Of a DNA stretch of 64,000 nt, positions 1,054 to 26,500 are shown piece by piece. The notes below the pieces were generated by a model, which was not told the origin of the DNA, did not search any database, and was given only the letters and a program-made list of their open reading frames with translations. The position numbers and the translations under genes are program-made. The number at the start of each line of letters is the position of its first letter. Within the stretch, counting starts at the first letter, position 1. Source of the stretch: an uncultured Planctomycetales bacterium (GTDB taxonomy: Bacteria; Omnitrophota; Gorgyraeia; Zapsychrales; Fredricksoniimonadaceae); the NCBI GenBank assembly GCA_964483535.1, contig CAZABZ010000001.1, forward strand, positions 8,594 to 72,593, given 5' to 3'.

Positions 1054-1067
1054 GAAATTCTTTATGC

Positions 1068-4955: not shown

Positions 4956-5162
4956 TGTTTCCCCCTTTTTGGGTTGAAAATCTAAAAAAAATATAAAATA
5001 ACGAGTTTGAAAAATGCTTTCATTATAAGCATCTACTTAAAATATAACACATTTTTAATAAAAAGCAAGCTTAAAACTTGATAAATAAGCAATATTTATA
5101 TAATTAAAGAACAATTACCCTGAGAAATAAAATCCCCTATTTTTGCTACTATTTCTTACAAA
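4956..5162 (-). promoter_or_regulatory. AT-rich intergenic spacer, probable promoter/5' UTR of the 1295-aa secreted-protein gene
   Basis: 207-bp non-coding gap, very A/T-rich with runs of A, lying between the PilZ gene stop and the next gene start on the same strand. No -35/-10 pair could be assigned with confidence. Confidence 0.3.
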
Positions 5163-5519
5163 TTAACCGCCCCACCATTTATCCTTAAATTGCTCGGAAC
5201 AATGATCGGTGATGTATTGATAAATCTTGTCCTTGTCCGGGTCCAAAATTTTGTCAAAAGACATCCCATAAACATACCTCCCTTGGTCTTCCTCAACCCA
5301 GGGCAAGCTGACCTCAAGTTTAATGGGATCGAATTTGTCCTCAAGGGCCAACGACATATCCACGGACCGCTCTCGAGGTAACCGTTTGTCAAAAGACGCG
5401 CGCATCCCTTTTAAGTTCAGGTCCTCGATGATACACTGGCTGGATTCCTGCGTTCCGGGCAGCCAGACCTTTGCTTCCCTTTTGACCTGCCAGCGAGGCA
5501 GTTGTCTGCGTTCATCCAT
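5163..5519 (-). CDS. PilZ-domain protein (putative c-di-GMP receptor), 118 aa
   Basis: ATG at 5517-5519 is preceded by AAAGGAGAGAAAA, a strong RBS. The N-terminal ERRQLPR matches the PilZ RxxxR motif. DLNLKG about 24 residues later matches the (D/N)x(S/N)xxG motif. The start is only 30 bp downstream of the giant-gene stop. Confidence 0.6.
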   Translation of the reverse strand: MDERRQLPRWQVKREAKVWLPGTQESSQCIIEDLNLKGMRASFDKRLPRERSVDMSLALEDKFDPIKLEVSLPWVEEDQGRYVYGMSFDKILDPDKDKIYQYITDHCSEQFKDKWWGG

Positions 5520-5548
5520 GTTTTCTCTCCTTTCTAACGGGGTTGTTT

Positions 5549-8500
5549 TTAGACCTCTATTGTGTACGCATACGTTGTTGATGTATAACTAATATCATAT
5601 GTAAATACAGCCATCAGCGGCGGTATTAAATTGTCAAATCCTGACCAGAAACCGCGGCTGTTGTGGTCCATGCCCATTGAACTTTCCGCCCACAGCATAA
5701 ATTGCCTCTCCCTGACTGTTATGACAATTTTAATAACGGTAATATAAATGATACGTACGGCATGGAAGAACCATTTTACAAATATCCATTCAAAAAATAA
5801 CGGGAAGCCCCAGATCCCATATAAAAAGAGAAACGCGGGGCCCTCGTTAAAAATTGTGCCATTGCGAGGAGCATTTTCCAACGACGAAGCTCCGCTTCTT
5901 GCTTCCGCAAGAAAACAACGGGACCACGCCCCAAAAAACAGGGCTCCCAAAGACGCTGGTCGAAACGCTTCCAAGGGCCGGACTACTCCAATGATTTTTA
6001 GCCGATGCCGAATAGTTCTGGGCGTATTCATTGATGCTGGCGCCGGCAAAATATTCATCCTGCCGGTTACCGGCGCTGACGCCCCACTTGGATTAATAGG
6101 CCGCGTTAATATAAAGCAAAGGTCGGACAACATCAGCGGGAAGAACACGATTGCAATTATGATCAAGGCCATCATTATTCTTTTTCGTATTCTTTCCCAT
6201 TTCTTACTGGAATCTTTGGCAACAGTCGTGTCCGGTTTGAATGTCAGCACAGCCCCGGGGTGTTCCAAATTATATTGACGATGCAAGGCGATGTTCTCGC
6301 GAAGAGAGCGTGCCGATTTAATCGCACGAATTCCTGCCCGACGAGTCAGGGAGGCGGGCGAATCATCCCCTGGTAAATGCCCATGCCAGCGCATAAGCAC
6401 CCCTACAGGAAGTATGTAAAAGAATGGGGCCTCAAACCGCGGCGCTACTTCCAGTTCAATCCATCGGTGAATACTTTCATGGTCTGGTTCCCATTTAAAG
6501 AAACTCACTATTCTCCTCAGCCAGTACAAGAAATAGCCAATACGATAGGTGATCCCCAGAGTCAACGGCATTTTTGTAGGGACGGGGGATAGAACCACCG
6601 CCGCCATCATGGCCTTCTTCACAGCTTTGGCAGCCTCCGGCCAAATAATCTGCACGGAAAAGACCCCTTCGATCCCCTGTAAAGGCCTGGCAATATCCTC
6701 TTTGGTCAATAACTTCATACTCCTGGCCGTAAAATGAAGCTCCCCTTGCTCCGGGTTACTTTTCATTTCTATGCCTTCAAGCAGATTGGCTTCCTCTAAT
6801 TTATCCTGTACTTTTTGGGCAATGTCTATCATATTCGCGCCTTGCACGATAATCGAAATTTCCGCCTGCGACTGCATAAAGTTACGCAATTGATCCGGTT
6901 TAATCAAATCCATGGCCAAAGCCGCGCACAATTCATTAAAACGGAAATTGCCTTCATTTTGAGCCAACCGGCGTTCTTCATTAAATCTGGCTATAAAAAT
7001 AAACGTCTCCTCAGAGAATGGCCCCCATCCCAATTCTTTGATGATCCCCATCAGTAAATCTTTGCCTCGTTCGACCGCGGCGTTATATTCATTGCGATTT
7101 TGCAGATATGCCAGCATCAGACGCGCCCGCAATGACTGTATTTTATCCCGCAAATTCTGCCGAACATTAATATCTCCCCTCACATCAATCGATAGGCCTT
7201 GTGTGACTTGCTCCAAAACCATACCAGCCCGTAAAGGGGCATAGGGGAGTAATCTCCCCTTACGGCCGCGCTTAAATTGTTCCAACTGCCCCAACACATA
7301 CGGATGATTACCCTCCCCTAAAACAAAACCCCGGTATTGGTCATCAAGCTGGATTTTACGATGCATGGCCGCGTCAAAGGGAATGGCCTTATCCGGCAAG
7401 GTGATAACAGCAAGCGACTTCCCACCTTTGGGGCCCGTAAGTAATAAGAAAATATACATGCGTTCATTGGCCCGTTCAAAAAGAAGGCGCAAATTCGTGT
7501 CAATGTCCACCCCCAGTTGCAATTCATCCCCGGGAAGCGCTTGTCCCTTTATGCCATCATTTTTCAATACATCATTTGCCTTAAAAGCCCAATGCGCGCC
7601 GGAAATAACTGGCGCCACTAAAATATGATCGGGTTGAAAACCAAAACGGTATTTCAAATAATCGGCCTTAGCCATGACTTGTATTTCCCATTTGCGACCG
7701 TCATCAATTAAATTAATATGGGAAGCGCTATAGCCATGTCTTGTATCATTTTTAAACTTTGTTTCTTTAACTCGATCACCCCATGCATTACGGACACCTA
7801 CTTCCGCGAACAGAGCATCCTCTTTATTTTGGGTAATAACCATAACTCTAAGCACATCCCCCAATTGATCAAATTTTTCATATTTGTTAGTTTTAGATTT
7901 TATTTTATCGTATATCGAAGCCAGACCTTTAAGATCCACATGAATTTGAATACCTGGGATCCCTTGTAAGATGCTCTTCATTTTTTTACGCATCTCTTTA
8001 GCAATATCTATAAACCGCTCTTCCACTATGCCTACGGCATACTCAATGTCCTTGTGCTCTGCGATGGCTTGATTAACATTCTTTGCAATGTCAAGTATTT
8101 CGGCTATTTTTCTGCCAATATCCTTAAATTCCTCCGGATGTTCCACCCTAAAAATACCGTCGCGCAAATCTTCCACCATCCGGGCGGAATTTAACCTCCC
8201 TGCCAAAGCCATGTATAAATGCCTGACCTTCCTTATAGAAAATTTCTGTTGTTGAGGGTCTCCATAACGGGTCTGCCATAATGTCAAAGCAAAAAGGACA
8301 TACAACACCCTGGCATCGCCACCAGTCATTTGAATGATAGCATTCATGTAATTAAGAAATGTTGAATCCGTCCTAAGTCTTTTGAATGTCTCATTCCAAT
8401 ACGGCCAGGCCATGATGGTTGCGGCGCGGTCTATCACCGACCCCACATTAGGCCCTAAATTAAGACTTTGCCTAATGTCCGCCTGCTTGCTTTTGGGGGA

Positions 8501-11500
8501 CGTCATGATCCTCAACTGGGCCAATGCCGCCTCTACTGTAACCGTATCATTCGTCCACTGGGAAATCTGACGACGGACAAAGGACTGTCCCTTTTCCCGT
8601 TTCTCACTGAAATCCTTGGTTCCTGTCGTAGAGGATTTGAATGTCAGCACAGCCCCGGGGGTTTCTAAATTATACTGACGATGCAAGGCAATGTTCTCGC
8701 GAAGAGAACGCGCCGATTTAATCATGCGAATTCCTGCCCGACGAGTCAGGGCGATGAGTGAATAATCCCCCGGTAGATGCCTATGCCAGCGCATAATCCG
8801 CTCCAAAGGAAGCATATAAAATAACGGCGCCTCGAGCCGCGGCGCTACTTCCACTTCAATCCAACGGTGAATACTTTCATAACCTGGTTCCCATTTAAAG
8901 AAACTCCTTATTCTCCCAACCCAATACAACAAATAGCCAATAAAATAGGTGATCCCAAAAGTCAATGGCATTTTGGGAGAGACGAGCAGTAGTGGGGCCA
9001 CCACCGCCTGTTGGAGGCCAAGCAATCCCACCTTGCTGCGGCCAGGATCTTTACTCTCCAGAGGCTCAGAGAGAAGACAGTCTTTAAAGAGCTTCTTTTG
9101 TTCGTCGGTAAATTTAAAATCTCCGGCAATCGCATCCATAAGCCCGGATAGGTCTCCTCGGACAAGATGAGTACGCTCGGGGAAGGTAGCTTGAACCCAG
9201 CCCAGAAAAGCCTTAGTCCCGGCTTTCGTTTTCATCAACTTCCAGCCCATGAGGTCTTTCAGGGTGTATTTCTCTAAAATATCCTGATAAAATGTCGCGG
9301 CTTTAAAAACGGGATTAGGAATACGTTCACCCGGATGTGTACCATTAATCTTAAGTGGAATAAATACTGTCTGGTAAAGATGTGCCCAGAAGATGTATCG
9401 CTCTTTGTTATCAGACAAACTTCTCGAAAGGAAGATTCTCTTTAACACAGCGACACGATCAACTGCAACAGGTGCGTTAAGTTCGGCATAAATTAGGACC
9501 TTAACATAATCTTTCCATACCCTAAAAAGAAAGAAGGAATCATCAATGATATTTTTGGCCTGATTGAGAAAGGAGCCAGCTCCTTTCCCTGCTTCAAGGG
9601 ACTCGCGGGCTTGCGACAAAATACCAAAAAACGATTTTAAGTCAGGCTCGCCTTTGATATCCTCCATCTTGCGTATGCCAAATATACATCCGAGCGCACT
9701 ATCAACATGCCTGCCTCCCAAGCAAAGTTCAGTATCATTAAGAAGCCCCGCTAACTTGATATTTCTCCTTTTAATCTCTCCCCAAAGTTGTGTCAGTTTC
9801 TTATCTACAAGCTTGCCGGCAATAACAGCTGCGTTTCGACTACGCATGTCGGTGTACCATGCGGCCGTCCGCAATAGTCGACTGGCAGTAAACCAACCCT
9901 GTTTACCGCTCTGAATCGCCTCTGAGGCCTCATTTATAAGTCTCCAGGCAATACGTTTCTCTTTAACCTTTAGTAACTTTGGATCCCCCAGATAATCAAG
10001 AAGTTCCTCCAGAGATGCCTTCAATCCGGATGTATTTTCACCGTTTTGCTCTGAAAGTATCTTCTTAAGCTCTGAACTTACTTCCATGACCTTGCGGCGG
10101 TCCTTAAGCTCACTTTCGATGGCATCGCAAATACTACGAAAACGTTCCCACTTAACTCGATTAGCAAGGCGTCTGTTCCTTATGGTAATCTTGAGAGCGC
10201 TTTGTGGAAATTTCTCAGCAGTCTTTTTAATGGCTTGCGTGTGGGCTTGGGCCCTCGTCAATGGATTCTGGCGGTCCAGAAACAGACGGTTTTCGATAAG
10301 TCCGTGATAAGCATCTTCGCGGACCAAATTTTTACTGAGTTTATAAACAAGTTCGGAGGAATAATAAATTTCCAGCGTGGAATTTTTACCGCGGGTAAGC
10401 TTGTCCCAAATAAATCCTCTTGGCGGAGCGCGCGAAATCTGCTGGTTCAAAATGAACAGCCTCACCGGAACATCGACAATCTCTTCAAATATCTTCTGGT
10501 CAACATTAACTTCGTCAAACGCCTTCTGAATGATAAGTTTCTTGATGTCCTTCACGTTTTGCGTCGAAACATTCCCTGAACATCCCGGCCCGCCCTTTAA
10601 AGTATCCCTTGTATTGATTTTCGACCCAATCCTGATATCCACGAATAACTCATTGGAATCCTCTGAGGCCAGAATAGTGGCCGCTTGAACTAAATATGAG
10701 ATAAGGTCCTTCTCCAATGCCAAAACCGGGACCGCAGCCGGAACCAGATGGAGAAGTTGCCGGTTGAGGTGAAGAATATAATCCCTGGTTATTTCGTCAC
10801 GGCGTACAATAAGCCAGGATTCAAGCATCTCATCATAAGATGGCGGCACGCGGATTTCCATGGAGGCCATTGTGTCAAGAATTTTACTTATATGCTCATC
10901 CAACCCATACGATGCTTTTGCTTTTTTAAACGCTTTTAATATATATTGTTTTTCTTTTTGCGTCACAGGCTTATTGACTTCCGTCCAGGTCATGGTCTGT
11001 TTTTGCCTCAACTTTTCTTCCTGCGCCGGATGGGACGACTTGTCGGATACGGCCCTCGCCTTTGCCGGTTTAAAAATTATGGACCTTTGATATACTTCCT
11101 GAAGTCCAACAACGATTTGCATAAAACCAATCAGCTCCAAAATATACTTAAAGACTGCATGAGAAGCGGGAATATAAAACAGCGTGGAGAACAAAAACAC
11201 TGTCCCAACAAAAAAGCCCAATAACCCGTTATAGAAAAGTGTTATCGCGTTTACGCCATCCATGAGACCCGAATAAAGAATGTCCTTCAATGAAGCATGA
11301 GCTTTACGTCCCTGAAGCTTTGCCAACAAGAACATCATGGCCATATTAAACGCTGTGATCCCGGATATAGATAAAATAATCCGGACGACTTTATTTATCC
11401 GCACGTATTTCGGCAGGCCGGCCTGCGCCGCTGAAAAATGCATCGTCAATCCATAACGCGGAAAGACTTCCAAAATCTTCGACAACGCCGGGTGTTGCTC

Positions 11501-14500
11501 CACCGCCCTGACAAACTCCCTTTCCGGCCCCAACCTTCTGCCATGAAATCTCTTTACGCTGTAATAGGTGTGCCACGCCAGATTGGCCGCAAACATAGCT
11601 TCCAGCGACTGTATCCTATGCTCGGCATCATTGGCAGGAGCGTTACGTTTCTTCAAGTTCAAAGCGTTGAGCGCCACCTCAGACAGGTCCAGGTTAATGT
11701 CATTCTTTTTTATGAATGGATCGGTACACGCATCTTTAAAATCAGCGACATCAGGATAAAGGACATGCGCCTTGGCCTTAACCTTGGCGCCAATCTTCGA
11801 GTTTGACAACGCCTCATTGAGCCATTCCGCAGACAATTTAGTCGCATCCAGCGTGGCATCCACATAATCCGCCGGCGTATAGCTGTCAAAATCCTGGTTA
11901 CGCATGAAAAGGTCGTGGTCACGTGTATCGTCCCCCTGGAAAATACAGCTATATCCGTCCTTTATTTCCAACGTCCCCCGCAATGAAAACGGAATATTAT
12001 TTTTTACTTTATCAAATAACGAAAAGATATCAAAAATCACGGAGTCGCTGGAAACGGGATTAATCATAAAACCGGCACTCTTGTCTTCTTTCCATGCCTT
12101 AGACTTCACATAAGCCTCGATCTTCTTCCCGATACCCGCCGCCCCCCTTGTAAATTCGACAATTTCACTCTTCTTGTCAGGGTTAAACGAAATGTAATTA
12201 AAGCGTTTCTGCAAAATATCCTCTGTCCTTGCTTTGGGGTAAGGACTGTCCCACAACAGCAACATCTGGTAAATAACTTCCCGGGTGTACTTTTTGTGCT
12301 TGCGTAGAAGGTCCAATATCTCCCTCAATGTTTCCGGTATATCATTGGTTTTTTCAAAATAGTCATACCAGCGACAGATCATGGCGACTAACGCCTTATA
12401 TTCTACGGGGTCCCCTCCGCTGGTAATATCAATGCTCCCATCACGAGCACATTGCCATGGCCTTCCCTTGTTTTGCGGGTATTTCTTATTAAAAACATCC
12501 TCTGGCAAATCATGGATCACTTGCTCGTGTTTGATATTGACAACACGGAAAAGTTTCCTGAATTCTGCGACCAGGCCGTCAAAATACGGACTGGTAATAT
12601 TTGCCCCCCTCAGATAGGCCTGCAAAAATTCCCCATCTTTATTGATGTCGTTATAATGTGTTTCCTTGATGATCGCGATCGTCATGATAATATCCAAAAT
12701 CTCCCGGCCTGTAGGTTTGGTCCCCCTATCTTCTAAAAATTTCAAACGTTCCAATTTTTGTGAAATACCTACTTCGGTCCCGACTTGGCGGCAGCCCCTG
12801 TTACGAGTAAGAATATGGAAAAAACGTTGCGCGTACAGCCGCGCCAGGCAAGGATCCAGAAACTCGAGGAGTTCCTGCGGAACAAGGCTGCGATCAAACG
12901 CCTTTTCTACAATAAAATAAGTGTCTTCAATCAACGCGCCGGCGGCCGCCAATTTTTTATGCGCGATCGACCTTGGATTATCTAATAAATATCGAAGCGC
13001 CAGACGATAAAAAATGACCGCCCTCATCGATGAGAAATATTGTTCGGCATTACCTTCTAAATAACGCTTCAAATTGATCTCCAGCACATTCGCGAAACGG
13101 TACCCGTAATGAACGGCCCAGTTATCATCATAAACAAATGTCGCTTTAAACGAAAACAGACTGTCTGATCGGTTCTGTGGCAACGCCGGGACCACCTGGT
13201 ACCTCAAACAAATATTCACATTCCGTCCAACCCATAAAATCCGGATCATCGTGTTATAAAATTCTTCTTTCAGGGCTTGATCTTCCACGGATTTTTCGTG
13301 CCATTTCTCCCACAGGGCATCAATGACTTGCTCCATCCCTTTCCCCTGTATCCACTGTATCCACCCTATTGGAAGATCCTCCTCTTTTCGCGGCGGAAAT
13401 AAACATACACTGACCGCTTTAGAGAACTCTTCCTTTGATTTAAAAAGATAACCAAAGCTATCTTCCTGGGGCGTAAAATATCTTTCAAAACAACGCTTGA
13501 CGCGGTCTTCTAATTTCTTCCTCTCGCTTTTATTTATTTGCCCGACCAAATACCAGGCCGGGATCTTTTCAGGCTCTTTTTTCGGCGATATAACGCAAGC
13601 TTTGTCTGCGGCGGCTTTATCTTTCACTGCCGAAGATTTTCCATTTGCCAACGAGCCAAACTTCTTTTGCCAGCTGCGGACAAAAATGGCAGCTATCAAG
13701 CTGACGCCAACTAAAACCATGGTCCACTTGAGCATCCCCCCAAGCCACATAGACGCGATGCTCACCGCATTGATCGCCAACAATGCCGGCATTGCACACA
13801 AACCTTTCGCATCATTCGTGAAGTCCACTAACTGACGAAAGATGTTGACACTGTTCGGCGCGTCTTTCCCTTCAATGGGACAAGAGCGGTCATGAAGAAC
13901 GTCCATCTGAATGCGGGCCCCTGCCTCGATCGTCTCATCCTCTTTTTGCATCTCGCTTAACTGTGCCAGCCTGTCAGACCCTTCAAACTCGGCTAACAAA
14001 CCAGCCAAAGGCGCATTCTTATTTTCAATGAAACCTCTGACGTGTCTGTCCAAAAGACGCGACATGGCTGAAGGATATCTTCCCTGCCAGTACGCGCGTG
14101 TAAAAAGACCTTTGAGTTGCGATGGGTTAAACGCCTGGCCATTATGAATAAATACCGTGCGTATCCCCCGATCAAAGCCATAAAGTTCCACCCCAAAATC
14201 ACCATGCACAAACTTTTCGGTCTCTATCGAAGCACGCTTCTGTAAAGCCTTAAACATTCTGCTAACCCAGAACACGATAACCTCATGAAGCATCTCCCGT
14301 GTTTCCTTCTGTTGTGGGCAAATGCTTTCTAACGCTTCCGGTAAAGAACGGCTGCTGAAATCGTCCACCCATTTCTCAAACTGTTCTTCAAGGCTCCCCC
14401 CGAAAATCTTTTCCGAAAAGCGTTCTTTCAAGAACCAATCCTCTCCACGCAAGTCAATAAAAGCATGTATGAAATCCTTCGTCCGCTCATCATATGCCGC

Positions 14501-17500
14501 ATAACTCGGCACCAAAGATAAACCATAAAAAATCATCTGGATATCTGATTCGACTGGATCTTTGAACCCACGCGTACGGTCCTCAAAACGTACAGCCGTC
14601 CTGTCCGCGTCATCATGAAGACGGTAACGAAGATCGGAGAAATCCAAGAATGCTTCCGCATTGGTGTATTTGCCCTCAAAAATGTAAATAACATCTTTTT
14701 CAAAAACAATCGGAATATCTTGTCTTTCCGTCTGTCCACGGATATAAGCATTTTTGATCACATACTCCTGACGTTTGGAACCGGAGGCGCGAAATGCGTG
14801 TAAGTTCCTTAAAAGATCTAGGGCCAAAGTAAAATCAAAAAAGCCCTCTTCTCCCAGATACTCCTGACCTGGCTTAAGATTGCCGACCATGTCACCTAAA
14901 AGCGCTCTTTCCTGTGGGGTCAAAACCAACGGTCCGTTGGCCGGGTCATGGGCTACAACTTTCTGCACAGCTTCCCGCCACTGGCGGTCTCTAAGGAACC
15001 AGTCCAGCTCAATGATCTTCACACGTGCGGTATCCGCTAGAAACTTCTCAATGAGTTTGGCAATGATCGTCTTCCCTGAACCTGAACCGCCGTCAATGGT
15101 GACAATAGGAGCATTACCTTCAACCCCGCGGGCAAGACGTTCACGGATATGTCTTACGATCGAAATGACAAACGGTGTCATACATGACTGAAGATAGTCA
15201 AGGGAAGTAGCAAATATCGGGTTGCCTGTCTTGGGATCTATCGGAGGATGATTATAATAACCGTGAGCTAAAGCAAACTCATGAGCAGGCAAAGGAATAA
15301 CCGCCGGGTCCTGTCCGTAACGATAACGTGTCGAAGAAATCGACAAATCGATCTGTGGATGTTTCAACAACAGTACCGGCAAATCCATTTGCCCGCCATA
15401 AAGGGCCTTGCCCTGTTGATTATACAACTCCATTCTTTCCTGCGTTATGCCCAGGCCAAACTTGCCGCGTTGTATCCAGCCAATACTAATACGATGCCGC
15501 GGATCTATCCTGTCTTCGTTTTTCTTTAAAATACTGTAAAACAGCTCGTAATAGTGAACGACCCGCTTTTCGTTCTCGATCCCAAGCAAATACACGAAAT
15601 GGACCCGTCGGCCACGGTTATAATCCATCAATTGCAGCATCTCTTCAAATCCTTCTCGCTCATTATCCGGCTCACTGCCAAAATCAGTATAACGTACCAG
15701 AGGCCCCATCCCGTCGATGGACAATTTGGTCATCATATGTCGATGTTCGGTGGAAACCTTCTCTGAGCGATAAACCTTCTTGTAACTGATACGACCCTGC
15801 ACCCTGATGGCCACAAAATCAAGTCCGAGTAAAGCAATAGCAAATAACGACGGTATCAAATGCCCATGGTTGGGAGGATTGCCGGCAATTGGCATAAGCC
15901 CTATCTTGATTTCCTGATCAGGATCGGCATCCTCCAGCGCCACCGGCCCATCATCCTCGATAGAATATCTTAATAATTTCGCGCGCTTAAACGGATTTGT
16001 GACCTTGCGACGAACATTTTCTTCAATCATCCCGAACACAGTCTCATAAGCTCTGAGGATCCTACTATTGAGGAACTTGTTGCTGCGATCACGGATCTGC
16101 GGGTCCGCTTTAATTTGCTGGTCAACAACATTGGCCAGCACTCCTTGCACGGCCTTAATCGCTGTAACATGGCGGGTTGCGGGATCCTGACCACGTTTGC
16201 CTTCAAGCCACCGGCGCAAAATAACTTCACGGGCAGAATTCTGCTCTTCAGTGAGATTAAATTCTTTACCGTGTGTGGCTAAGGCGCGAATTTCATGTCC
16301 AAGACTTAACGCTGTTTCAAGGCGGGTGCTATAAGCGGGATAATAGGTGCTGGCCCAAAGGTATTCCAGGCCATCTTCGATAGTAGACGTGGCCAAGAAC
16401 CCTTTAAAAGGCGCGCCTTTTAACAGGCCTGCCCTTCCCATCCAACGCAGTTTGGCCGCAGCCTGGCTGTCGCCAGTTTCTTCAAGGCCGCGGGCCATCA
16501 GTTCCCACATCTCCTCGGGGATGTCCGTCACCTTGCTCCGATCTAACTGTGTGAACTCATCCGCCACGATCTTCTCATAAGGAATGTCCCTCATTTCTAA
16601 AGGCATAATGGCCTCGGGCAGACGGCGGGTGGGGTCTTTTTTGCTTGAGGATGGCAAATTGTCTTTGGTCTGACATTGTGTCAGAAAATCATGAAGGAAA
16701 TGTTTCTTAAAACTCGCAACATACGCCAACTTTCTCTCTGCATCTGTAAGTTTATTCGCTTTGGCATATCTCTTGGATTCTTTCACAACCAATTGATAAA
16801 GCTCTTGCAATCCTTGAATGGTATATTCCGATTTTATCCTTCCATCAGCATTTAAATATTTAGCTAAGAATTTCTTCCTTTCAGTAGGGATATGATAACC
16901 ATAGCTTGCAGTTGTCATAATTCCGTCTTCTTCCAACACATCACCGTCAGAAACAAACAATGCGTTCTTGTCCCCATCAATAACAACTTTTGATCCTTCC
17001 TTAAGTTTCAGGCCGTCTTTCAAAACAATTCCCTGCCCCGCTCCTGTTAATTGCCACTTAGCAACAGCAAGATTAATTAAAGAAGGAATGCCATCCAGAC
17101 GAGTCAAGTCAGCTTCATGAGAAGAACTATTGCCATAAGTCGTAATCAGGCCTGCTTTGGGATAATCAAACATCACCTCTAAGACCTGCTCTTGATTGCC
17201 TTCGTGCGCAAGAAAAATAACCGGCTTGTTTTCACTCATCAGCTTACGGGCTTTATTAATATTCCAAACAAGATATCCTTGCATAGCCCCGGAGGTTGAA
17301 GCTTCGCCTTGAGCAAGCCTCTTGGCCTTAACGCCTTTTTTAACTTTATATATTCTTCTCACTCCTAATTTATCTTGTAGTTTTTCAATCCGTGGAATGG
17401 CGCGGGCCTCTGAAATCTTACCTTGAGCTAATTGCTCTTTGATATAGGCGATTTCCGCTTGTGGAGCAAAATTTATGTTTCGAGTTTGCAAGAAATAAAT

Positions 17501-20500
17501 CTTCCCGCCATTCACAACAAACTCAACTTCCTGTGGGCCGACTGCTTCCTCTAACTTTTTGCGTACCGCAAGAAGTTGGCGATAAATACGCGGTGCTGTC
17601 TGCGCCAATTTATTAATATCCTGCCCCTTCCGTCCGCCAGTCATCAATTCCTCACCTTTGGCATTTTCAAGATACTGTCCAAATAAAACTTTTTCATTCG
17701 TATTGGGATTACGGGTTGAAAAAACTCCCACGGCATAAAAAGGCCGTGAAGGACCTTTCCCGCTTATCCACAACTGAATAATAATTGGCAGGTCATACGC
17801 CTCCCCCAAACCTTCTCTGCGACGGTAATCTTTAGCCTTCTCTGAATACCATGCTTGCGCAACTTCACGAATAGCGACTAAAAGATCATTTGTGTTGATT
17901 ATGGTTTTAAGAACGCCGGGCATTGATCTCTTGGGATTACTGCGAACCGAATAAGAAACTGATAAATCATCGGACACTCCCGCTTTATGTAATTCTTTAA
18001 AAATCAAAGCCATAAAATCTTCTGCCTTTATTTGGGAAGACTCTATGATAATTTTCACCAAATCTTCAGAAAGAACTATGCCCGATGGATATGGAAGCCC
18101 CAGCTGATCAAGGATTAAAAATCCCGCTTCCTTATTACCCATCTGAGGCCTATAACATCCTTTGCCTAACAGCCTTACACCAAGTTTCACTCTATTGGCA
18201 GCCAATTGTTCTGCTGAAAATATATGCGATTTTTTAGGAAATGAAATGGCCCGCACTAATCTATCTCTCGCTGCTAAATAAAGAGCAATGAAATCCTTAT
18301 ACTCGGCAGGGACCGAAAGACGCAAGCTGTAATCACCATACCCCCAGTGCTTTAATGCGCTCCTCTCGGGATGGGATTCTGATTTCTCCTCCATATAGGC
18401 CTGCGAAAGGTGAAAATATTGCTTTAAAACATCCAGCATGGGGTCTTGATCAATCCGTCTTTTAATGTTAAGCAACACGCGAGACTCTTCAAAGGTATCG
18501 AATTTATATATCGTATATTTTAAAAGGAAAGTTACAAACTTTGAATTCTTCTGAGAAGGGCCTAAGTAACGAGGCTCAGCATTGTCGCCTCTAAGAATCC
18601 TATCGACTCTATTTTCGAATCTCTGATATAAATCGTACAATTTTTCTGAATCAAGTCTTGGATTAATTTTTTGTGCCGCACGAAAAACAGAAGATAGCCG
18701 CTTCTCCGCCATTACTTTTTCTGGAGTCAATAATTGAGTATTGGCTGTGCCCTCAGCCGAGGTTGAATCCTTGATTATGTCCTGATAACGCTTGACCTGC
18801 GCAATAAAATCTTCAATAGTTCTTGCATTAAACCCGACAGCGGCAACTATTCCTTCCGGCATAGCCAGCACACCAGCCACCTTCGTTTCAAAAATCCCAG
18901 CCGCGCCGATAATGATAAGTGACTGATTCTCCCTGCGAATATCCATAAGTGAACTATTCTCTTCTGCCAACTTTGCCTGGACATCAGACCACTTCTTAAG
19001 AACCACTCCATCAACACCGAGTTTGACCGCTGCGTTGATGGTTTCAATGAACGACGGCTGGACGTCCGTTCCAATCTCAGCAAAGATAATTAGGGCCGGA
19101 TACTCAACACGAATCTTAACTATCTCATCGGCCGTTGGGACAAAGTCGATCATAGTGATAAAGCTAGCTCCTGCCATGGCCCCTTCGTAGATCTGGGCAA
19201 CGTTGGTCGCAAAATAACCGATAACAGCTGATGAGTTCTTCGTGCGAACGGCCTTTAGTACATCGATTATATCAACCGTTGGAATAAAATTATTGGCAAT
19301 CAAAATCTCTGCAAACTGTACTAATGTAGCTGCCTCCAGCCCCGCATAGCCCTTGCCGCCGGTGACGGTGTGCAGGCCGACTTCAATACGGGAAGCCATG
19401 ATAACAGCCTTGATATCATCTTTGGCTATAGCCCCCTCCTCTGGGACAACCTCATTCCCAACGGCCATCTGCATCAGCTTTCTCATCTGCACCCCAACAT
19501 CCCCAGAATCTCTGTGATCGAAATTCTTAATAGTTGCAACAGCCGCTGCATTATCAGACAACACCGGCGCAGAGATCGTGCGAGCATCGTTGACGATCCT
19601 CATAAATTCCTGATCCCCGTTGTCCTTCATGGCGAGGAAAAGAGGAGGAATATAAATAATGCTCGCGAGATTTCGTCCTTCGGGATTCCAATCGCCGGAG
19701 ACATTGCCTTCCCTTAACCCTGCGATAATTGGTTCACACCCTTTAACATGCTGTTGCGCATCCGCGCTGCTGCCTAAAAGAAGGACATCTTTCAGCCCGC
19801 GCTTTAACGCAATAGCGGCTAATTCCTTCAGCGCAACTTCCCCAGCTAAAGTAATAAATACAACTTTGCCATCTACGTCCTTGCCTATTATAGAGAAGGA
19901 CGCCTTTTTGGTTTGGATTTCCCAAGCTACGGCATTAGGTTCAAGGGCCGGGAATTTATACTCGATGGTGTCTGATACATCTTCACCCTTATTGTTAATG
20001 ACCACAACCCCGCCAACAGCAAAACGGATCTTTGAAATATCGCTGTCCCTGACTGGTTTGCTGTCCTCAATATCTACTTTTATAATGCCTGCGGTTGGGC
20101 CATCAATAACAAAGAAATAATAGGTATTAGTCAGAGAAACTACTTTATCAAGCCCGATACCGGGAGCTGTCTTAATAATCAATTTGCCGTTTTGAATAAA
20201 CATGGTCTGAGCTTCCCAGAAATTACCCTGATGACCATTGATAGCAAAAATGGCACCGGTTTTCTTGGCGAAGGCCTTTACAGACAAACCCGGGAACCGT
20301 CTAAATATTTTATTGCGCTCTTTGGCGATTTTAATCGTCTGGGCAAATCGGGCGAAGTCGTATCTTATGCCTTTCTTGCTGGTATATAATTTAACTACAT
20401 TCCCAGAAGGAATAACAACTTCACGGGCCCAAATAGCGCCTTCTTTAGACTGGGTGGTAAAGGTTGTAACATTTAATCCTTCTACGGCTTTAGTGCCAAT

Positions 20501-23500
20501 GATCCCGGCATAAGCAAAAATGGCCTTGATAAATTCATAACTATCCCCACTCAACCCTTCAATGACCTGCTGGGACCTAAGGCCAAGCCCTTTGACGTTT
20601 ACCTCAACAAGATTCTTGGCTAACTCTACGCGCTCTGCGGTCTTTAAACTATTCAAAAGCGTCAACGCATCTTCCCATGCCTGTTGAGGCACAACATTGA
20701 TGCCTTCAATACCACTCTTGCCTTCAAGGATCATATCTTGCTTGCGCAAGTTGGCGGCTATGCGGAACATTTCGCCAATATATGTTTTAATGTAATCTTT
20801 CTGCTCTTTGGACTGGAGTTGTTCATCTGTAATTGTGGTAGTTACGCTGACTCCCTTGACTTCCCCTGAAGCAATCAAATCTGCAAAGGCCTTATTGAAC
20901 ATGCCCTTGGTGCGCAATTGCGCCTGGGGCTTGGTCATATATACAATGGTCAGTGTACGGCCTTTCTGTATTAAGCCCTTTTCGAGCATTTCTTTCCTGC
21001 TCTTGTTGAAATTATCAAGGGTGAATTTCGATTCCTCTTCAAGTACAAAAGCCTCGTTGCTGAGCATCTTGTTAAGTACATCTTCTGAGATTATGCCTTC
21101 CTGTGCTTTGCTCTGGGCTATCTTACGTATGATCTGACGGATCAAATCCGCCTCAGAAGTGCCCACAGCCTCTTGAAGCGAAGCGCCTGCTTCAAGGGCG
21201 GCTTTAACTTCCTTAACATGTTCATCCTTGCTTATTTTTCTCCCGCCGCCTATTTCAACCTCAAATGCATTTTCTACTGCCGCTTCAAGAAGAGCTATTG
21301 TCAAGCGACCAACTCCACCGGAGATAATGATACGTAAAGGATTGTCTTTATTGCTTTTGGAACGAACAACGTCTGCCTTGGCAAAAAAATCCAAAATCTT
21401 ATCAAACACCTGTACAACATCAGCGCCAAGGACCATCAACTGACTGTTTTCATTAGCTAATAACTCAATGCTCTGCTCATCGGCGATATCATTAACAGCC
21501 ATCAACGAAACCATTCTTCTTAATGGCTCAATAGGATTAATTGCTCCCTTGTCCTTAGTCCCGTCTTTAGTCACATCAATCCCTACTTTAGCTAACTCGT
21601 TTTGAAGATATTTATCATCATCCGACAATTTTCCTGTTTTTATATCTTCTGCCACGCCTTCCATTATCTCCTCTATCCGAACTTTAGCTTTCGCTTTAAC
21701 ACGCTCAATTTCTTCCTGACCGACCACTTCAATTATTCCCGCCAATTCATCCATTAAATCCAGAAAAACAGATCCAAACTCTTCCACATAATGTTGCGCG
21801 CGTTTTGTCTCCTCATCTTGTCTCTCTGCATCAAATCGCTTCTTAGATTTAATCTTTAAAGCATACCCGACAGCTCTGCTGACCTGACCAACCTCATCTA
21901 CAATTTTTTGAATCCTTTCTACCCCCGGATTTTGATATCTAAATTCATACGCCATAAAGTTAGGATTGGCTTCCCCTAAAATGCCACCTTCCCTCAATTT
22001 CCCAACAATCTTTGCCCCTTCGTTAACAACTAACGGCCGAAATGGCCACTGATTAAACGGCATTAGTTTGTTTCTTTGAAAATATTGAATATTTTCTTTC
22101 ATTTCCGCCAAAGTTAAATATGGATCAAACATGATAAATCCAACATCCAACCCCAGGCCAAGGTCTTGAAGCGTTCTTAACGAAACAGCTATGTCATCAA
22201 ACTGCATCCCTCGTGAATACCTCTTAAATTGGCTAAGGCTTCCAGCCTCAACACCCATAAAAACTTTTACTAACCCTACCTGCTTTAAACGTATGAACAA
22301 TTTCTTCATTTCCTCATTTTGATTCCCCCTATCGTTACTTTTAAAAACAATATCCGGCCTAGTAAAAATACGGAACGTAAATTTAATCCCATATTTCTTC
22401 GACAATGCCTCAATGCCGTCAGCAATTTGATAAATCCTTGAAATATTCTCTTTGTTTCGGCCTCCAATAAACTCATCATCCGAGAACTCCACCTCAGTTA
22501 TTCCCTGAGACATAACCGATTCTAAGTTCTTCAGCACCCGCTCAACAGTAAACCCTTGCCAACTCGCCGTGTTTCCTTTTTGTACTACTTCTCCTGTCCT
22601 TCTAAAGGACGTTCTTGTGCAATAGGCACAACCTCCCCAAGGACATCCCCGGGAAGTTTGGACTTGAACATTGCCGCCATCCTTGACAATATCCTGATAC
22701 GAACCTACCGCAGGCATATAAGGTAACGTCTGAAGATCTATTGTTTCTCTTTTTGTGTCTACCCTTCTGTTAGTCGCCGGATCTAAGAAAACAAGATTTG
22801 AGACCTCTGAAAGAGAGGCCTTCCCTCTATTAAATTCCACTAATCCTCGTAAAGCAATTTCGCCCTCACCCCTCACAACAACACCTTGAGGATAAATTTC
22901 TAAGAACTTGTCTGGGAAATATGTGGGAAGTTGATTGCCAAAGACCACTAAGGTGTGTTTTGGATCAAAGCCTTGCCTGGCCATCAATTGAGACATAATA
23001 GCCTGCACTAATTCTATTGCCCCTGGTTGTACCGATAACCCTAACATATCCGGCTGATCATTAACGATTTCATCGACTATTCCTCGAATATCATCATAGC
23101 TTCTTGTCCATCGGCTTGATACATCCACCGTCCTTCCAAAATGGCCCTGAAGATCTCCTTTTAATGTTTCCAAAGATAAATTATTCCACGCGTTATAATG
23201 TGCCGGTGACCCAAGCCCAATTAATTTGACTTTGCTTACAATTTGGAAGGTAACAAATTTATTAAAGGCAGGGTGAACGCTGGTAACAACTCCGCTTGCG
23301 ATATTTTCGTTAAGCCAGTTCTTGAATGCTTGCAACATGTAACCGTTTTGGGCAATGATGCCCGCGGTAAGGGCGGCTACGTCATCGTTATCCATATTGG
23401 GATTAGCTAAAGATTGGAATTCATCGATCAATACAGCTTCAACCACAGCAGGTGGCGCGCGGCCTAAATGAGGACTTAAGGTAACTACATTGTTGATTGT

Positions 23501-26500
23501 GTCTGTTTCCGCAACGAAACCATTGGCTGTCTCTGCCACATTCAAGGTAAATTGCGCATCGCTTAAGCCAGCCTTGGCCGCGGCAGCTTCGATCGTGCTG
23601 CGAAGCTGGTCAACTTTTTCTGAAGTCATCTGACCTTCTATGGCTTCCACTGTTGCCTTACCGGCAACGATGGCGACCTCCATAGCCACCTTCGCTTCAT
23701 GCGTGGTGGTGACCTTGATGGGGAAGGGTTTCTTGCTCTCATTGGCTATTGTAAAACTGTGCCTGCTAAGCTTGGAAGCTATAATCACCCCAAGCATCAG
23801 CACCGCTGGTACAAACCAGATCGCGCCAAGAGAATAAAAGACAATTATTCCAACAGTGCTCAAGCCAAGAAGGGCCTGTCCAAAGCTCCACGCATAGGCG
23901 AGGACATAGGCCGCAATCCCAACCAGCGTCACTGTCGTAAACCAACTGGAACGAAAGAGCTTCGGCAGTAAATTTGCATCACCGTACTCTTCATCAACGA
24001 TATTGGTAGTATGAATAAACTTATAAACACCGTTGTACATATAACGCGCCTGATTGGCTGAGAGAGATAACGGTTTACTCTGGGCAATGCCCGCCAGTCG
24101 AGCAATCACAGATATATCCATTTTGTCTGCCGCACGCATTTCCCCAATCTTGTTGTAACGATTGAATTCCCCAAACATCTCATTCGCATGGACCATCAGG
24201 CCTTCCTCATAACCCCAACGGGCAAGGAACCGATCCAGCGCCTCACGGAACCAACGGTCAGATGTCACGCGCTTGTTTTCTGGGAGCCCTTCATTTACAT
24301 AATCAACAAAACGATCCAGGCTGGAACGTTCAATGGTTAGATCTGGCCTAACGATCGGATCAAATGAACGAAATTCATTGGCCGTGGAAGCATTTAAGCG
24401 AGCCACTGCCGTACGGATGACCTTTGTTGCACGTGCGATGAGGACTCCCTGAACAAGCCTAACCCCTCCCTTGAACACCACCGGAACCGCGAGTACGACC
24501 AGTGACGCAATCGGAGCAACCCAAAGAAGAGCGATTGCTATCAGCACCGATGCGGCAACACCCGTCCGCGCCCAATTAACACCAAGGGCCTTCTTTTGTG
24601 CCTCTGCATCATTTAAAGCTTTCTCCCAAGTCTTCTTAATGTCCTCATTAGCTTGACCCAAAATGCGCATCCTGAGCGCCTTGATATCATCACGCACGTT
24701 CACGCGTTCAGCTCCCATCAAAATATCGCGCCAAGCGCGGTATTGAGCGTAGAAGAAGAAAATTCCTGTATCAATGATTGCCATCGCAATCTTAATCGGC
24801 ATAGACCATATCGTTCCACGATATTGAATACGATGGTAAATTGCGCTGTAATCAGGGATCTTCTTGTCATAAATGTTATATGCCCATGGCCAAACTTTCA
24901 AAGCGCGACCAAGCCACGGACGAGACAGGTTCGGGATAACGCCTGGATTATAAACTTGAGGATAAATAAGCCAGCCCAAGATCATATTGAAGTAGAAGAT
25001 TGTCACCGCAAGGATCACTGGGTGAAAATTCACAAGGCACCCGATGATGATAACAAACGGAGCGGCCAAAATCATCCCATAGCGATCACCCTTGCCCTTA
25101 ACAACATCAATATATCGCTGGTTCATATACCAACCGCTGCGGTCTGTCGGAGGGAAGCACGGAACGCCCTGTGTTGCCCAGTCATTAATAGCATCCACAT
25201 AGTTCGGATAAAGCGAACCAAAAATCCCCACGAACCCAGGCTTAATGAACATGCGTTTAAGCAAGATCAGGGTCCCCATCGGCCAACCATAAATCTGATT
25301 GTAGAAATGGTGGGCTGACAAACTGATCGAATGCATAAAAAGATAGCTCATCGCAATGGCAATAATTGAAAGCGGCAAGCCATACCAAGGATTGATCTGG
25401 AGAACCATCAAAATAACAAATGTCAAAGTACCGATCATCCCAGGGACCTTGCGCAAGAAGAAATGGCGCATGCCAAGTGAGGTCAATTTGTAATGTACCG
25501 GGATTGGGCTAAGAAGCGATCGCAGCATCTCTTCATGCTGGAAGAGCTCGGTCACGTCAGCGGCATATTTGTATTCTGGTGTCATGTGATTGATACGACG
25601 GTGTGTCTTGTCCTGAATCATTTCCACATATGAACGATATCTAAGCTTCCCACCTTTTGATATAGCGCCCATACCCATCAGTGAATCTTCAGCCGCGGAT
25701 AAAAGCGGCCCATTCCCATCGCGGCCAGAACGCAGATCAACACCCGCAGCCTTAAACGGTGCGCGAACCTGAGCTGTCAAGCCCGAAACACTTGGGAATG
25801 GCTCGCCGAAGAACGAATCAAGTTCCATCTCCCACTTGCCATAAACTTCCAGCGAACCCATACGGTTCATCGCCATCTGAACAGGATGTGTCCAGGCAGA
25901 TTCCGCGAGGCCACCAGATCCGGAAGCCAACGTTGTTAACATATGCTCAGACCACAGCGGGAACAGACTACCAGTGAGTTTCGGATCCGCATCATACTCT
26001 GCAGTCACAAACGGTAAGAATTGCGCTTCTTCAAACGGGATACGGTTAGAGTTATCCTGACCAATCATATGCCTGGCCTGAGTCATTGCGCCTTTCAACT
26101 CCATCCAAGCCGCGTCCTTAACTGGCATGATCAACATATATCCGGATGGCTCAACAACGGAAACATTCGGTAGATATTTTGAATCTTCGGCCATGCCCGC
26201 TTGAGCAGGGCTAAAGCCGGCGGCCCAGGCACCAACCGGCTGATAATTGTATGCGAACTTTTCCGCAGCAAGTTCTTTATAATTCATTTCAGCTTGGATA
26301 AGATAACTATTTTCATCCTCCGTCAAGGCCTGACCATTGGACTGCTTTGTTTTGATTCCTTGATAAATATCATCCCAAAGATAATCTTCAGTATGATGAC
26401 GATAAGCTTGGAATATCTCGGCGTTACGTAAATTAATGTTCTTGATCGTATTTTCACGTACGCTGACCCAAAGCGTAAATGTTTGCATAAGCCCTTCCAA

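Follow-up and report, generated by a model that had tools for sequence, protein, structure and literature searches.

A direct repeat around a RelA/SpoT-like cassette as the probable footprint of duplication plus insertion at the 3' end of a giant gene of Omnitrophota

The window, by which the whole analysed stretch of 64,000 nucleotides is meant, contains near the 3' end of a single giant gene two copies of one protein module, here called M, on either side of a RelA/SpoT-like cassette. This direct repeat is probably, with a confidence somewhat above even, the trace left by a duplication plus insertion that is specific to this lineage and lies at the 3' end of the Omnitrophota gene. The repeat marks how the cassette was built in, and a role as a recombination switch is unsupported. 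The features concerned are the following:

5163..5519, minus strand: pilZ, directly downstream of the giant gene (Pfam PilZ, E=3e-9)
5549..63991, minus strand: giant ORF of the open reading frame list, a probable 'archaeovorin'-type giant gene of Omnitrophota
5549..6193, minus strand: conserved membrane tail T with the terminus ...ISYTSTTYAYTIEV (aa ~19267-19480 and stop codon)
6194..6592, minus strand: module M, downstream copy C, aa ~19134-19266, native M-T junction kept
6593..8593, minus strand: inserted long-RSH (RelA/SpoT-like) cassette, very divergent, ~660 aa
6644..6862, minus strand: putative ACT/RRM-like beta-alpha-beta-beta-alpha-beta element at the cassette end (AF2 residues 581-653, pLDDT ~70-80)
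7667..7930, minus strand: synthetase-like core, the Pfam RelA_SpoT match (residues 227-314 of window:6602-8608:-)
8594..8992, minus strand: module M, upstream copy N, aa ~18334-18466, native A-M junction kept
8993..10597, minus strand: region A, aa ~17799-18333, conserved region before the module

The direct repeat pair described in the earlier note was confirmed, with both copies in frame and in the same orientation on the minus strand. Independent repeat detection placed it at 6193-6492 versus 8593-8892 (83% identity, spacing 2400), and full alignment of the copies gave a homologous block of about 400 nt. In register, positions 6203-6592 and 8603-8992 share 82.6% of their nucleotides and 74.6% of their amino acids, values that reach 85.1% and 78.9% in the core (6236-6577 versus 8636-8977), and past ~6592/8992 the similarity fades into a small indel. 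The repeat block first proposed stands, but with the copies precisely 2400 nt (800 codons) apart its pairing of 6236 with 8635 and of 6602 with 9008 is a few bases off. Random pairs of 390-nt segments drawn from this gene (about 200,000) had a mean identity of 25.5% (SD 2.4) and a maximum of 38%, which excludes a chance origin. Self-comparison of the giant protein aligned aa 18326-18467 with 19124-19267 (70% identity, E=5e-61), the M pair being its only strong internal repeat. The duplicated part is a module of ~133 aa only, and the interval of ~660 aa matches nothing else in the gene, so that the suggested growth of the C-terminal region by segmental duplication holds for the module, while the interval is an insertion.

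The conserved module of about 110 aa noticed in each copy was borne out by an M family HMM, which matched copy N at aa 18328-18469 (i-E 4e-60) and copy C at aa 19126-19269 (i-E 2e-59). The structure prediction for M is a five-helix domain of ~110 residues, at good confidence; M had no Pfam, NCBIfam or PDB sequence match, and a fold search gave no informative match. Its first helix, previously taken for a transmembrane helix, has 16 residues in the predicted structure, and the hydropathy of this start lies under the usual threshold in most family members, two of which are charged there; it is therefore probably not transmembrane. With the M profile, the window protein has two matches, and every one of the homologues has a single one (8/8). 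Identity is 71% between the window copies and 35-46% between them and the rest of the family, and a tree places the two as sisters, so that mutually closest copies stand against single-copy homologues, as in a duplication in place. Both also lack the 'GY..GW' segment, which is full length in seven of the eight homologues and shortened in the other. With a dS of 0.33-0.37 and a dN of 0.12-0.15 between them, both copies have evolved under moderate purifying selection, a dN/dS of ~0.4 indicating only moderate constraint.

Wherever the flanks are present in homologues, M lies between region A and tail T. Region A aligns to the homologues P0003 (192-547), P0007 (3-288) and P0009 (11-233), as well as to the loci L002 and L004, and it abuts a single M in P0003 and P0007. 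Tail T has strong hydrophobic segments at aa 19276-19294 and 19387-19426, and a phmmer search found 32 proteins at E<=0.001, most of them matched at or very near their own C-terminal end. The M+T unit aligned to P0003, P0004, P0006 and P0007 from query residues 10-19 to 354-356, the matches stopping 1-3 residues short of the C-termini. Given this family order of A-M-T with a single M, the cassette in the window order, A-M-cassette (~660 aa)-M-T, is an insertion.

The family ending ordinarily consists of A, then the helical M of ~110 residues, then the membrane tail T, and in the window lineage the RelA/SpoT-like cassette of ~660 residues stands in frame between two M copies, of which the upstream one retains the native A-M junction and the downstream one the native M-T junction. 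In the proposed history, the rearrangement would postdate the split from the RSH-bearing relatives L002 (GCA_041643075.1) and L006, given that the copy dS of ~0.35 is below that of the window cassette against L006 (0.50) and L002 (0.61), a dating that assumes equal rates and no gene conversion. Both M copies may have been kept since each does a structural job, for example as an adaptor joining the cargo domain to its neighbour, a role that is conjectural given the family, sequence and fold searches of M described above. The RSH-like cargo itself may be a functional, probably modified domain of nucleotide-pyrophosphokinase type or a regulatory one, and the repeats would by now be too diverged for efficient recombination.

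The interval between the repeats had been read as an RSH domain, and what lies there is a whole, very divergent long-RSH-like unit with scores below the curated cut-offs, and not a canonical catalytic module. Against Pfam RelA_SpoT (PF04607) the cassette scored 26.5 bits (gathering 27.0, E=8.2e-6, profile 4-92 of 113), a borderline result in which the E-value is significant and the curated threshold is missed; the homologue P0001 scored 26.3 bits. Against NCBIfam TIGR00691 (spoT_relA) it scored 24.9 bits with a cut-off of 499.2 (E=5.9e-6, profile 65-299 of 687), and against PDB RelA it matched (E=7.6e-5) the collinear segments 173-224, 252-343 and 535-564, the last of which is not significant alone. 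The AF2 model is poor overall, with a pLDDT of 44, and reaches 70-83 in the core, where an alternating beta/alpha pattern is seen, and in a Foldseek search of the PDB the top 48 matches were all RSH enzymes (best E=4.5e-7), with low TM-scores. The reading of the cassette as RSH follows from the agreement of these three sequence libraries with the fold search.

In comparison with E. coli RelA, the cassette keeps the K, S and K of 'RxKxxxSxxxK', the Asp of 'DV', 'GY.S.H' and 'EIQ', while Asp stands in place of the first Arg of 'RxKxxxSxxxK' and Met in place of the Arg that follows EIQ. Both Arg replacements are present in all three cassette lineages, and P0001 additionally lacks the His of GY.S.H. 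The catalytic and substrate-binding roles of the aligned synthetase residues are taken here to be those of the RelSeq/RelA literature. Given the scores below the cut-offs and the two replaced Arg residues, the catalytic activity of the cassette is, as judged from sequence, uncertain. The ACT/RRM-like element is present in L006 and absent from L002, and this assignment reflects predicted topology only, as the element has no Pfam match. A TGS-like stretch in the cassette is a candidate by the author's own reading. The orthologous cassettes of L002 and L006 are 67-69% identical to that of the window, with a dN/dS of ~0.35-0.4.

The gene pilZ served as the synteny marker for positional orthologues, and it also follows the giant gene in L002, L004, L006 and L017, L004 being a Candidatus Omnitrophota MAG. 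These orthologues carry differing 3' ends, since L002 and L006 have the RSH cassette without M or T, L004, which lies at the same place in the chromosome, has A and T separated by a GNAT domain, and other segments are found elsewhere, which makes the 3' end of the giant gene a mosaic. The breakpoints fall at the same short junctions, namely '..QQA..' before M or before a 681-aa segment and 'SFVRRQISQW' at the cassette start. The order and mechanism of events are tentative, drawn as they are from four or five mosaic loci; among the matches listed, which comprised the same population plus L002, L004 and L006, no close relative had a plain A-M-T ending or a one-copy intermediate, and none more than 80% identical had another architecture.

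A mosaic of this kind also suits a different history, in which the M copies never duplicated in place and an M+RSH cassette recombined into a resident A-M-T gene from a diverged allele, a paralogue or another strain, such that the divergence of the copies predates their joining. Such an exchange would resemble integration by a single, Campbell-type crossover, or the way in which Rhs/CdiA toxin genes accumulate orphan C-terminal cassettes. The recurrent junctions and the different cargo at one site (RSH in the window, GNAT in L004) speak for it, as does the hint of movement between lineages given by RSH cassettes that are equidistant in all pairs (68-69%) when PilZ puts L006 far outside (55-56% versus 73-80%). 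On the other hand, no M-RSH donor was found, L002 and L006 having RSH without M, and the two copies have in common a deletion specific to the lineage, while no other M comes nearly as close to either of them as they do to each other. Any donor must then have been a very close relative, which makes the exchange hardly separable from duplication in place, and it is regarded as a minority possibility, though one to be taken seriously.

The repeats might alternatively serve, or be maintained, as sites at which RecA deletes or amplifies the RSH cassette in frame, and this would mean population-level on/off or copy-number variation of the cassette. The same orientation and the exact 800-codon offset fit such a switch, given that an in-register crossover between the copies would leave an in-frame, intact A-M-T protein of ancestral type. 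However, the copies are 17% diverged, and their longest perfect run of 25 nt is at or below reported minimal processing segments (thresholds in part from PMC4824099), so that they are not near-identical repeats. In B. subtilis, recombination drops log-linearly with divergence, by ~200-400-fold at 8% and, in the same system, by up to ~45,000-fold at 21% (PMC4824099). MutS/MutL genes adjoin the giant-gene locus, and the synonymous differences are spread evenly along the repeat, with no recent conversion tract. Ten contigs of the same population, which all carry an identical pilZ and derive from JGI, ENA and Logan samples, are, wherever they overlap the window, collinear with it, and none of them (0/10, two of which span both copies) has a deletion of the 6.6-8.6 kb interval or an extra copy. 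In other samples, contig breaks fall on or close to the repeats (window positions 8660, 8667, 6334, 6283, 6162 and 6158), to which structural heterogeneity could contribute, but breaks at short shared k-mers are expected in short-read assembly, and L009 starts exactly where the shared 25-mer ends. The loss or amplification of the module envisaged in the earlier note is thus possible in principle and is improbable as the function of these repeats.

Still less probable is an older duplication whose copies were held similar by gene conversion, as in concerted evolution, such that its age is greater than the low dS suggests and a wider clade could have had the two-copy arrangement from its ancestor. 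Between the copies, the 3' half of M is indeed more alike than the 5' half, but synonymous changes occur throughout, also in that more conserved half, with 5 and 3 synonymous codon differences in the stretches starting at aa 18420 and 18430, and neither the RSH-bearing L002 and L006, with M on neither side, nor the single-copy state of all eight other family members fits this. An assembly artefact, whether by chimeric joining or by a repeat wrongly resolved from short reads, is hardly credible: several short-read contigs do end in or next to the repeats, but the assemblies JGI 3300041809 and ENA ERZ27250145, from separate repositories and samples, are identical over window positions 988-13250, which take in both copies, the interval and both junctions; two further assemblies (L009 and L010) cover RSH-M-T, no exact inter-copy match exceeds 25 nt, when the k=141 that the contig names imply is far longer, and the reading frame continues unbroken over both M junctions as one ORF.

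With duplication plus insertion as the favoured reading, the window can be compared with several known systems, the first of them being its probable gene class. The giant ORF encodes at least 19,480 aa within the window, with no stop before the right edge, and on the source contig, Ga0455670_0001368, the gene call is 21,986 aa long. This one ORF exceeds 10,000 codons and carries numerous hydrophobic or transmembrane segments (54 hydropathy peaks, many overlapping, which form ~30 separate segments), and in the Pfam search PPDK_N and some TPR models were above the cut-off, Radical_SAM and a weak ResIII were below it, and SecA_DEAD had no match. Archaeovorin-type genes of Candidatus Omnitrophota are likewise single ORFs of tens of thousands of codons with many hydrophobic segments, with PPDK_N, Radical_SAM, TPR and a helicase-like region, and with a small pilZ directly 3' of the giant gene. 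In West-Roberts et al. (bioRxiv 10.1101/2023.11.21.568195), pilZ is reported downstream of giant genes, and the typical set comprises PPDK_N, Radical_SAM, TPR, a SecA_DEAD helicase and others; the window gene differs in having the weak ResIII match instead of SecA_DEAD. The term 'ppGpp' has no mention in the main texts of the Omnitrophota literature compared, and 'RelA_SpoT' and 'alarmone' are absent from one of these texts, where the displayed 'rela' strings are unrelated words. An account of the M+T unit or of a varying 3' end was likewise not encountered in these main texts.

With the long RSH enzymes (RelA/Rel/SpoT), the cassette shares collinear weak matches in the order of C-terminal HD helices, synthetase core and later helical region, together with the kept GY.S.H, EIQ and aligned Asp and, by prediction, an ACT-like end. 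It differs from them in being embedded in a giant protein, where RSH enzymes are free-standing, in lacking the N-terminal half of the HD domain, and in its two replaced Arg residues and its scores far under the family cut-offs.

The RSH-type synthetase fold is also known as the terminal cargo domain of larger delivery or toxin proteins, as in toxSAS (FaRel/CapRel) and the T6SS effector Tas1, and a predatory lifestyle has been proposed for Omnitrophota. For the window cassette a toxin role is hypothetical. The cassette has a long-RSH layout, with an HD remnant and an ACT-like end, where toxSAS are compact, and at the window locus no antitoxin or immunity neighbour was identified and PADLOC gave no match, with no defence or toxin model matching.

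The Rhs/CdiA polymorphic-toxin genes encode a large surface-associated protein with a strain-variable 3' end and have displaced orphan C-terminal cassettes, in which a conserved upstream piece is repeated directly on either side of the variable cassette, and these repeats can mediate swapping. The variable 3' end and the direct repeats around the cassette of the window gene may be seen as analogous. Here, however, the arrangement is all one reading frame rather than an orphan array, the two repeats differ by 17%, the gene has no identified immunity partner next to it, no VENN or PxxxxDPxGL-type demarcation motif was noticed, and what lies downstream is pilZ alongside a 1295-aa ORF without family match.

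The generic case of intragenic segmental duplication or domain shuffling offers a further likeness, in that the duplicated module is in frame, the paralogous copies are mutually nearest, the homologues are single-copy and both window copies are under purifying selection. The window differs from this case in that its copies are non-tandem, bracket a foreign insert of ~2 kb and keep both native junctions.

The 3' end of the giant gene is a case of domain duplication and shuffling, in which two uncharacterised conserved modules, here named M and T, are combined with a divergent cargo resembling RelA/SpoT homologues (RSH), arranged along the window as follows.

5549–63991, minus strand: giant ORF, with 19,480 codons in the window, carrying both M copies
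8993–10597, minus strand: conserved region A, preceding M
8594–8992, minus strand: upstream copy of the helical module M (copy N)
6593–8593, minus strand: RSH-like cassette, with a synthetase-like core (7667–7930) and an ACT-like end (6644–6862)
6194–6592, minus strand: downstream copy of M (copy C)
5549–6193, minus strand: membrane tail T, a conserved C-terminal unit also present in proteins P0003–P0033, seen in 32 proteins
5163–5519: pilZ, the next gene 3' of the giant ORF
1068–4955, minus strand: orf1295, a 1295-aa ORF downstream of pilZ
25–1053, plus strand: mutL/mutS, just past the giant-gene locus in the window and in two related loci (L002 and L004)

Ahead of its first in-window ATG, the giant ORF stays open to the window edge (63991–64000). 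The window belongs to the 115-kb JGI contig Ga0455670_0001368, on which this gene has a call of 21,986 aa, leaving about 2,500 residues beyond the window. The downstream pilZ and the PPDK, Radical SAM and TPR content fit the published description of Omnitrophota giant genes (bioRxiv 10.1101/2023.11.21.568195). The 1295-aa ORF has no Pfam match, and its position is conserved in three related loci (L004, L006 and L017), with 44–58% identity over the N-terminal parts. A plus-strand ORF antisense to T (5748–6278, 176 aa), which has no family match, is probably spurious as a gene and was rejected because more than 30 proteins conserve the frame that it overlaps. The mutL end of the window differs from two other assemblies (L001 and L007) by about 34 clustered substitutions (498–987), a sign of strain-level mosaicism.

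A repeat search over positions 1–14000 returned a single long direct pair (6193–6492 and 8593–8892, 83% identity) with a spacing of exactly 2400 nt, and alignment of both regions on the minus strand revealed a sharp-edged homologous block of about 400 nt. The direct repeat of about 85% identity that the earlier note had described within one ORF is thereby borne out, at 82.6% DNA and 74.6% protein identity in register over 390 nt (6203–6592 and 8603–8992), rising to 85.1% and 78.9% in the core (6236–6577 and 8636–8977). Chance is excluded: 390-nt pairs drawn at random from this gene, about 200,000 in all, had a mean identity of 25.5% and never exceeded 38%. The proposed comparison of the gene with itself, carried out as a BLAST of 300-aa chunks, gave the M pair as its only strong internal repeat (aa 18326–18467 and 19124–19267, E=5e-61). 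Weak repeats (26–36% identity, E down to 1e-21) form an array at the in-window start of the protein (aa 1–925 of the in-window ORF, about 61200–63991 on the minus strand), which is unrelated to the M repeat.

An assembly artefact, the weakest of the explanations, is dismissed by an ENA contig from another sample (ERZ27250145 k141_1763695), identical to positions 988–13250 through both copies and both junctions, and by the longest perfect run between the copies, only 25 nt (shared 25-mer at 8636–8660 in copy N), which makes a collapse at k=141 implausible. Two further contigs (JGI Ga0187851_10005250 and ENA ERZ27249965) each take in the interval and, beyond it, copy C with the tail and pilZ. 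In at least six other metagenome assemblies of this population, short contigs begin in or close to the repeats (8660, 8667, 6334, 6283, 6162 and 6158), one of them at the exact end of the shared 25-mer, which is probably ordinary repeat-associated fragmentation, with a possible contribution of population heterogeneity. The JGI 3300018046 population (L009) has an identical RSH cassette, and differs over 5841–6235 by 12 substitutions clustered in the tail, plus one in copy C; strain variation seems to be locally concentrated in T.

When copy C and the rest of the C-terminus (357 aa) were searched against 1.84 billion representative proteins, 32 matched at E<=0.001, and in four of these (P0003, P0004, P0006 and P0007) nearly the whole query was aligned, ending a few residues from their own C-termini, so M (about 133 aa) and T (about 215 aa) make up a single conserved unit at the C-terminus. 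With a profile made of ten M sequences, M is detected twice in the window protein and once only in each of eight others. Region A, in turn, aligns with P0003 (192–547) and P0007 (3–288), stopping where their lone M starts, which, together with the M-T unit, establishes A-M-T as the family architecture. The window has the order A-M-[insert]-M-T, in which copy N lies in its native 5' context and copy C in its native 3' context.

Neither M nor T has a match in Pfam, NCBIfam or the PDB. The tail comprises a strong hydrophobic segment, a variable Cys/Arg-rich loop and about 70 highly conserved final residues, closing on the near-invariant end ...ISYTSTTYAYTI(I/E)V, and might serve giant proteins as a signal for sorting or anchoring. 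The one TM helix that had been assigned to each repeat copy is probably a misreading, since the first helix of M has 16 residues, the best 19-residue hydropathy there lies between 0.03 and 1.7 in the family members, and P0007 and P0018 have a strongly charged segment at this place; the first segment of T scores 2.66. A word-indexed protein database returned only two tail fragments for M plus T, no match for the M family alignment, and P0001 as the sole match of a 1000-aa query; these negatives are weak, as this database seems short of giant and end-truncated proteins.

The interval between the copies (aa ~18467–19130) does not resemble the rest of the giant gene. The RSH domain previously proposed there stands as an RSH-like region, although not as a canonical RelA/SpoT. 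The family scores fall below cut-off: Pfam RelA_SpoT gave E=8.2e-6 (26.5 bits, cut-off 27) and NCBIfam TIGR00691 gave E=5.9e-6 (24.9 bits, cut-off 499). With a three-sequence profile, E. coli RelA in the PDB was matched at E=7.6e-5, collinearly over residues 173–224, 252–343 and 535–564, the third segment not being significant alone. An AlphaFold model from two sequences has low overall confidence (pLDDT 44), with 70–83 in the synthetase-like core and in a beta-alpha-beta-beta-alpha-beta element at the end, and its best 48 Foldseek matches in the PDB are all RSH enzymes (RelA, Rel, SpoT, SAS1 and RelP; best E=4.5e-7, with low TM-scores). In the alignments GY.S.H, EIQ and the aligned Asp are retained, and two arginines are replaced, by Asp and Met. 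From these profiles and this model, we conclude that the cargo is probably a long-RSH-like cassette, very divergent, whose catalytic competence is uncertain; a stretch of it appears TGS-like on our own reading. The composition profile gives no clear island for the cassette (GC 0.37–0.49, against about 0.45), and PADLOC matched neither the cassette, nor M plus T, nor the 1295-aa neighbour.

Among the matches listed, only two other lineages carry the cassette. In L002 (GCA_041643075.1), a 29,339-aa giant gene finishes after A and an unrelated 681-aa segment, its ORF ending at 9920 (region L002:9800–10010), and the cassette follows as a separate 555-aa ORF without the ACT-like end, resumed in another frame beyond a frame change and an in-frame stop ('SFLRR*ISQW', with a stop in place of Gln, against 'SFVRRQISQW' in the window). 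This junction could be pseudogenised, a sequencing error or a case of recoding. L006 (JGI Ga0209824_10004346) is continuous at this point: a single ORF contains a segment like that of 681 aa, about 130 additional residues and the whole cassette, and stops directly after the ACT-like element. M and T are absent from the DNA retrieved for both lineages. The 681-aa segment of L002 has a single PDB match (N-terminal part of a GTP pyrophosphokinase, E=0.17), and an HD-hydrolase-like motif in it, without Pfam or NCBIfam support, was not relied on.

In L004, an Omnitrophota MAG, region A is followed by an insert with a GNAT acetyltransferase domain (L004:8200–10714; Acetyltransf_1, E=2.5e-11) and extra hydrophobic segments, a different pre-tail module and T, an arrangement that parallels the bracketed insert of the window. 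The motif 'AMLP' occurs there after A as well as before the pre-tail module. A short M-like stretch of L004 scored E=0.31 against the M profile, which is not significant, and L004 was therefore not counted as a second two-copy case. In L017, T is preceded by yet another segment. As pilZ follows every one of these gene ends, and an orf1295-like gene and/or mutL is also found in four, they are positional orthologues with mosaic 3' ends.

The two M copies are sisters on the tree, with 71% identity to each other and 35–46% to others, and a 'GY..GW' segment is missing from both, which is present at full length in seven of the eight further M sequences and shortened in one. Their synonymous differences are scattered over the whole repeat, with dS of 0.33–0.37 and dN of 0.12–0.15 (dN/dS about 0.4). 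The RSH cassettes of the window and L006 have a dS of 0.50 and a dN of 0.20 (dN/dS about 0.4), and those of the window and L002 a dS of 0.61 and a dN of 0.21 (about 0.35). Taken at face value, these rates would place the M duplication after the divergence from the other lineages with the cassette, both copies having been retained under moderate constraint, the same as that of their surroundings.

The best-supported reading of M-RSH-M is a lineage-specific duplication plus insertion, or a closely related cassette recombination, the exact mechanism being no longer recoverable. Such an event would have set the RSH-like cargo in frame while keeping both native M junctions.

An origin by cassette exchange has to be taken seriously as a rival. 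Certain short junctions are breakpoints repeatedly, and different cargo lies at the same site (RSH in the window, GNAT in L004). The cassettes are also equally similar in all three pairs (68–69%, dS 0.47–0.61), whereas PilZ (73–80% among the window, L002 and L004) places L006 far outside (55–56%, dS 2.3), a discordance that hints at exchange of cassettes across lineages, or at very unequal rates.

The earlier suggestion that the repeats are a substrate for loss or amplification of the cassette is geometrically sound, given that an in-register crossover would give back A-M-T in frame, but lacks support. Divergence between the copies is 17%, no perfect run exceeds 25 nt, and recombination frequency falls steeply with divergence in one experimental system (PMC4824099); mismatch-repair genes adjoin the locus; and the deletion or extra-copy variants that had been anticipated did not appear among the contigs listed, only two of which span both copies.

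Omnitrophota giant genes are among the longest known, and their growth and diversification are poorly understood. Under duplication plus insertion, this locus would provide a dated, base-resolved gain of cargo, in frame between copies of an adaptor-like module, with mosaicism of the 3' end visible in four or five positional orthologues. With M and T, the locus further yields two conserved families, and it places within a giant protein a divergent RelA/SpoT-like unit, apparently not mentioned in two papers on Omnitrophota. Current ideas are not overturned; this is an informative case of domain shuffling, and no new mechanism.

Finally, it is conceivable, if rather improbable, that the whole stretch from A to pilZ is a hot spot of cassette exchange whose RSH-like cargo serves as an effector or a PilZ-linked signalling module. 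Enzymatic cargo (RSH-like in the window, L002 and L006, GNAT in L004) would then be swapped or stacked through recombination at short conserved junctions and at M, and the window would show one such stack, M-cargo-M-T. Nucleotide signalling together with the PilZ protein encoded downstream is one role that the RSH-like unit might have; another is that of an effector, for example an alarmone/nucleotide pyrophosphokinase toxin delivered to prey, by analogy with Tas1 and the toxSAS enzymes.
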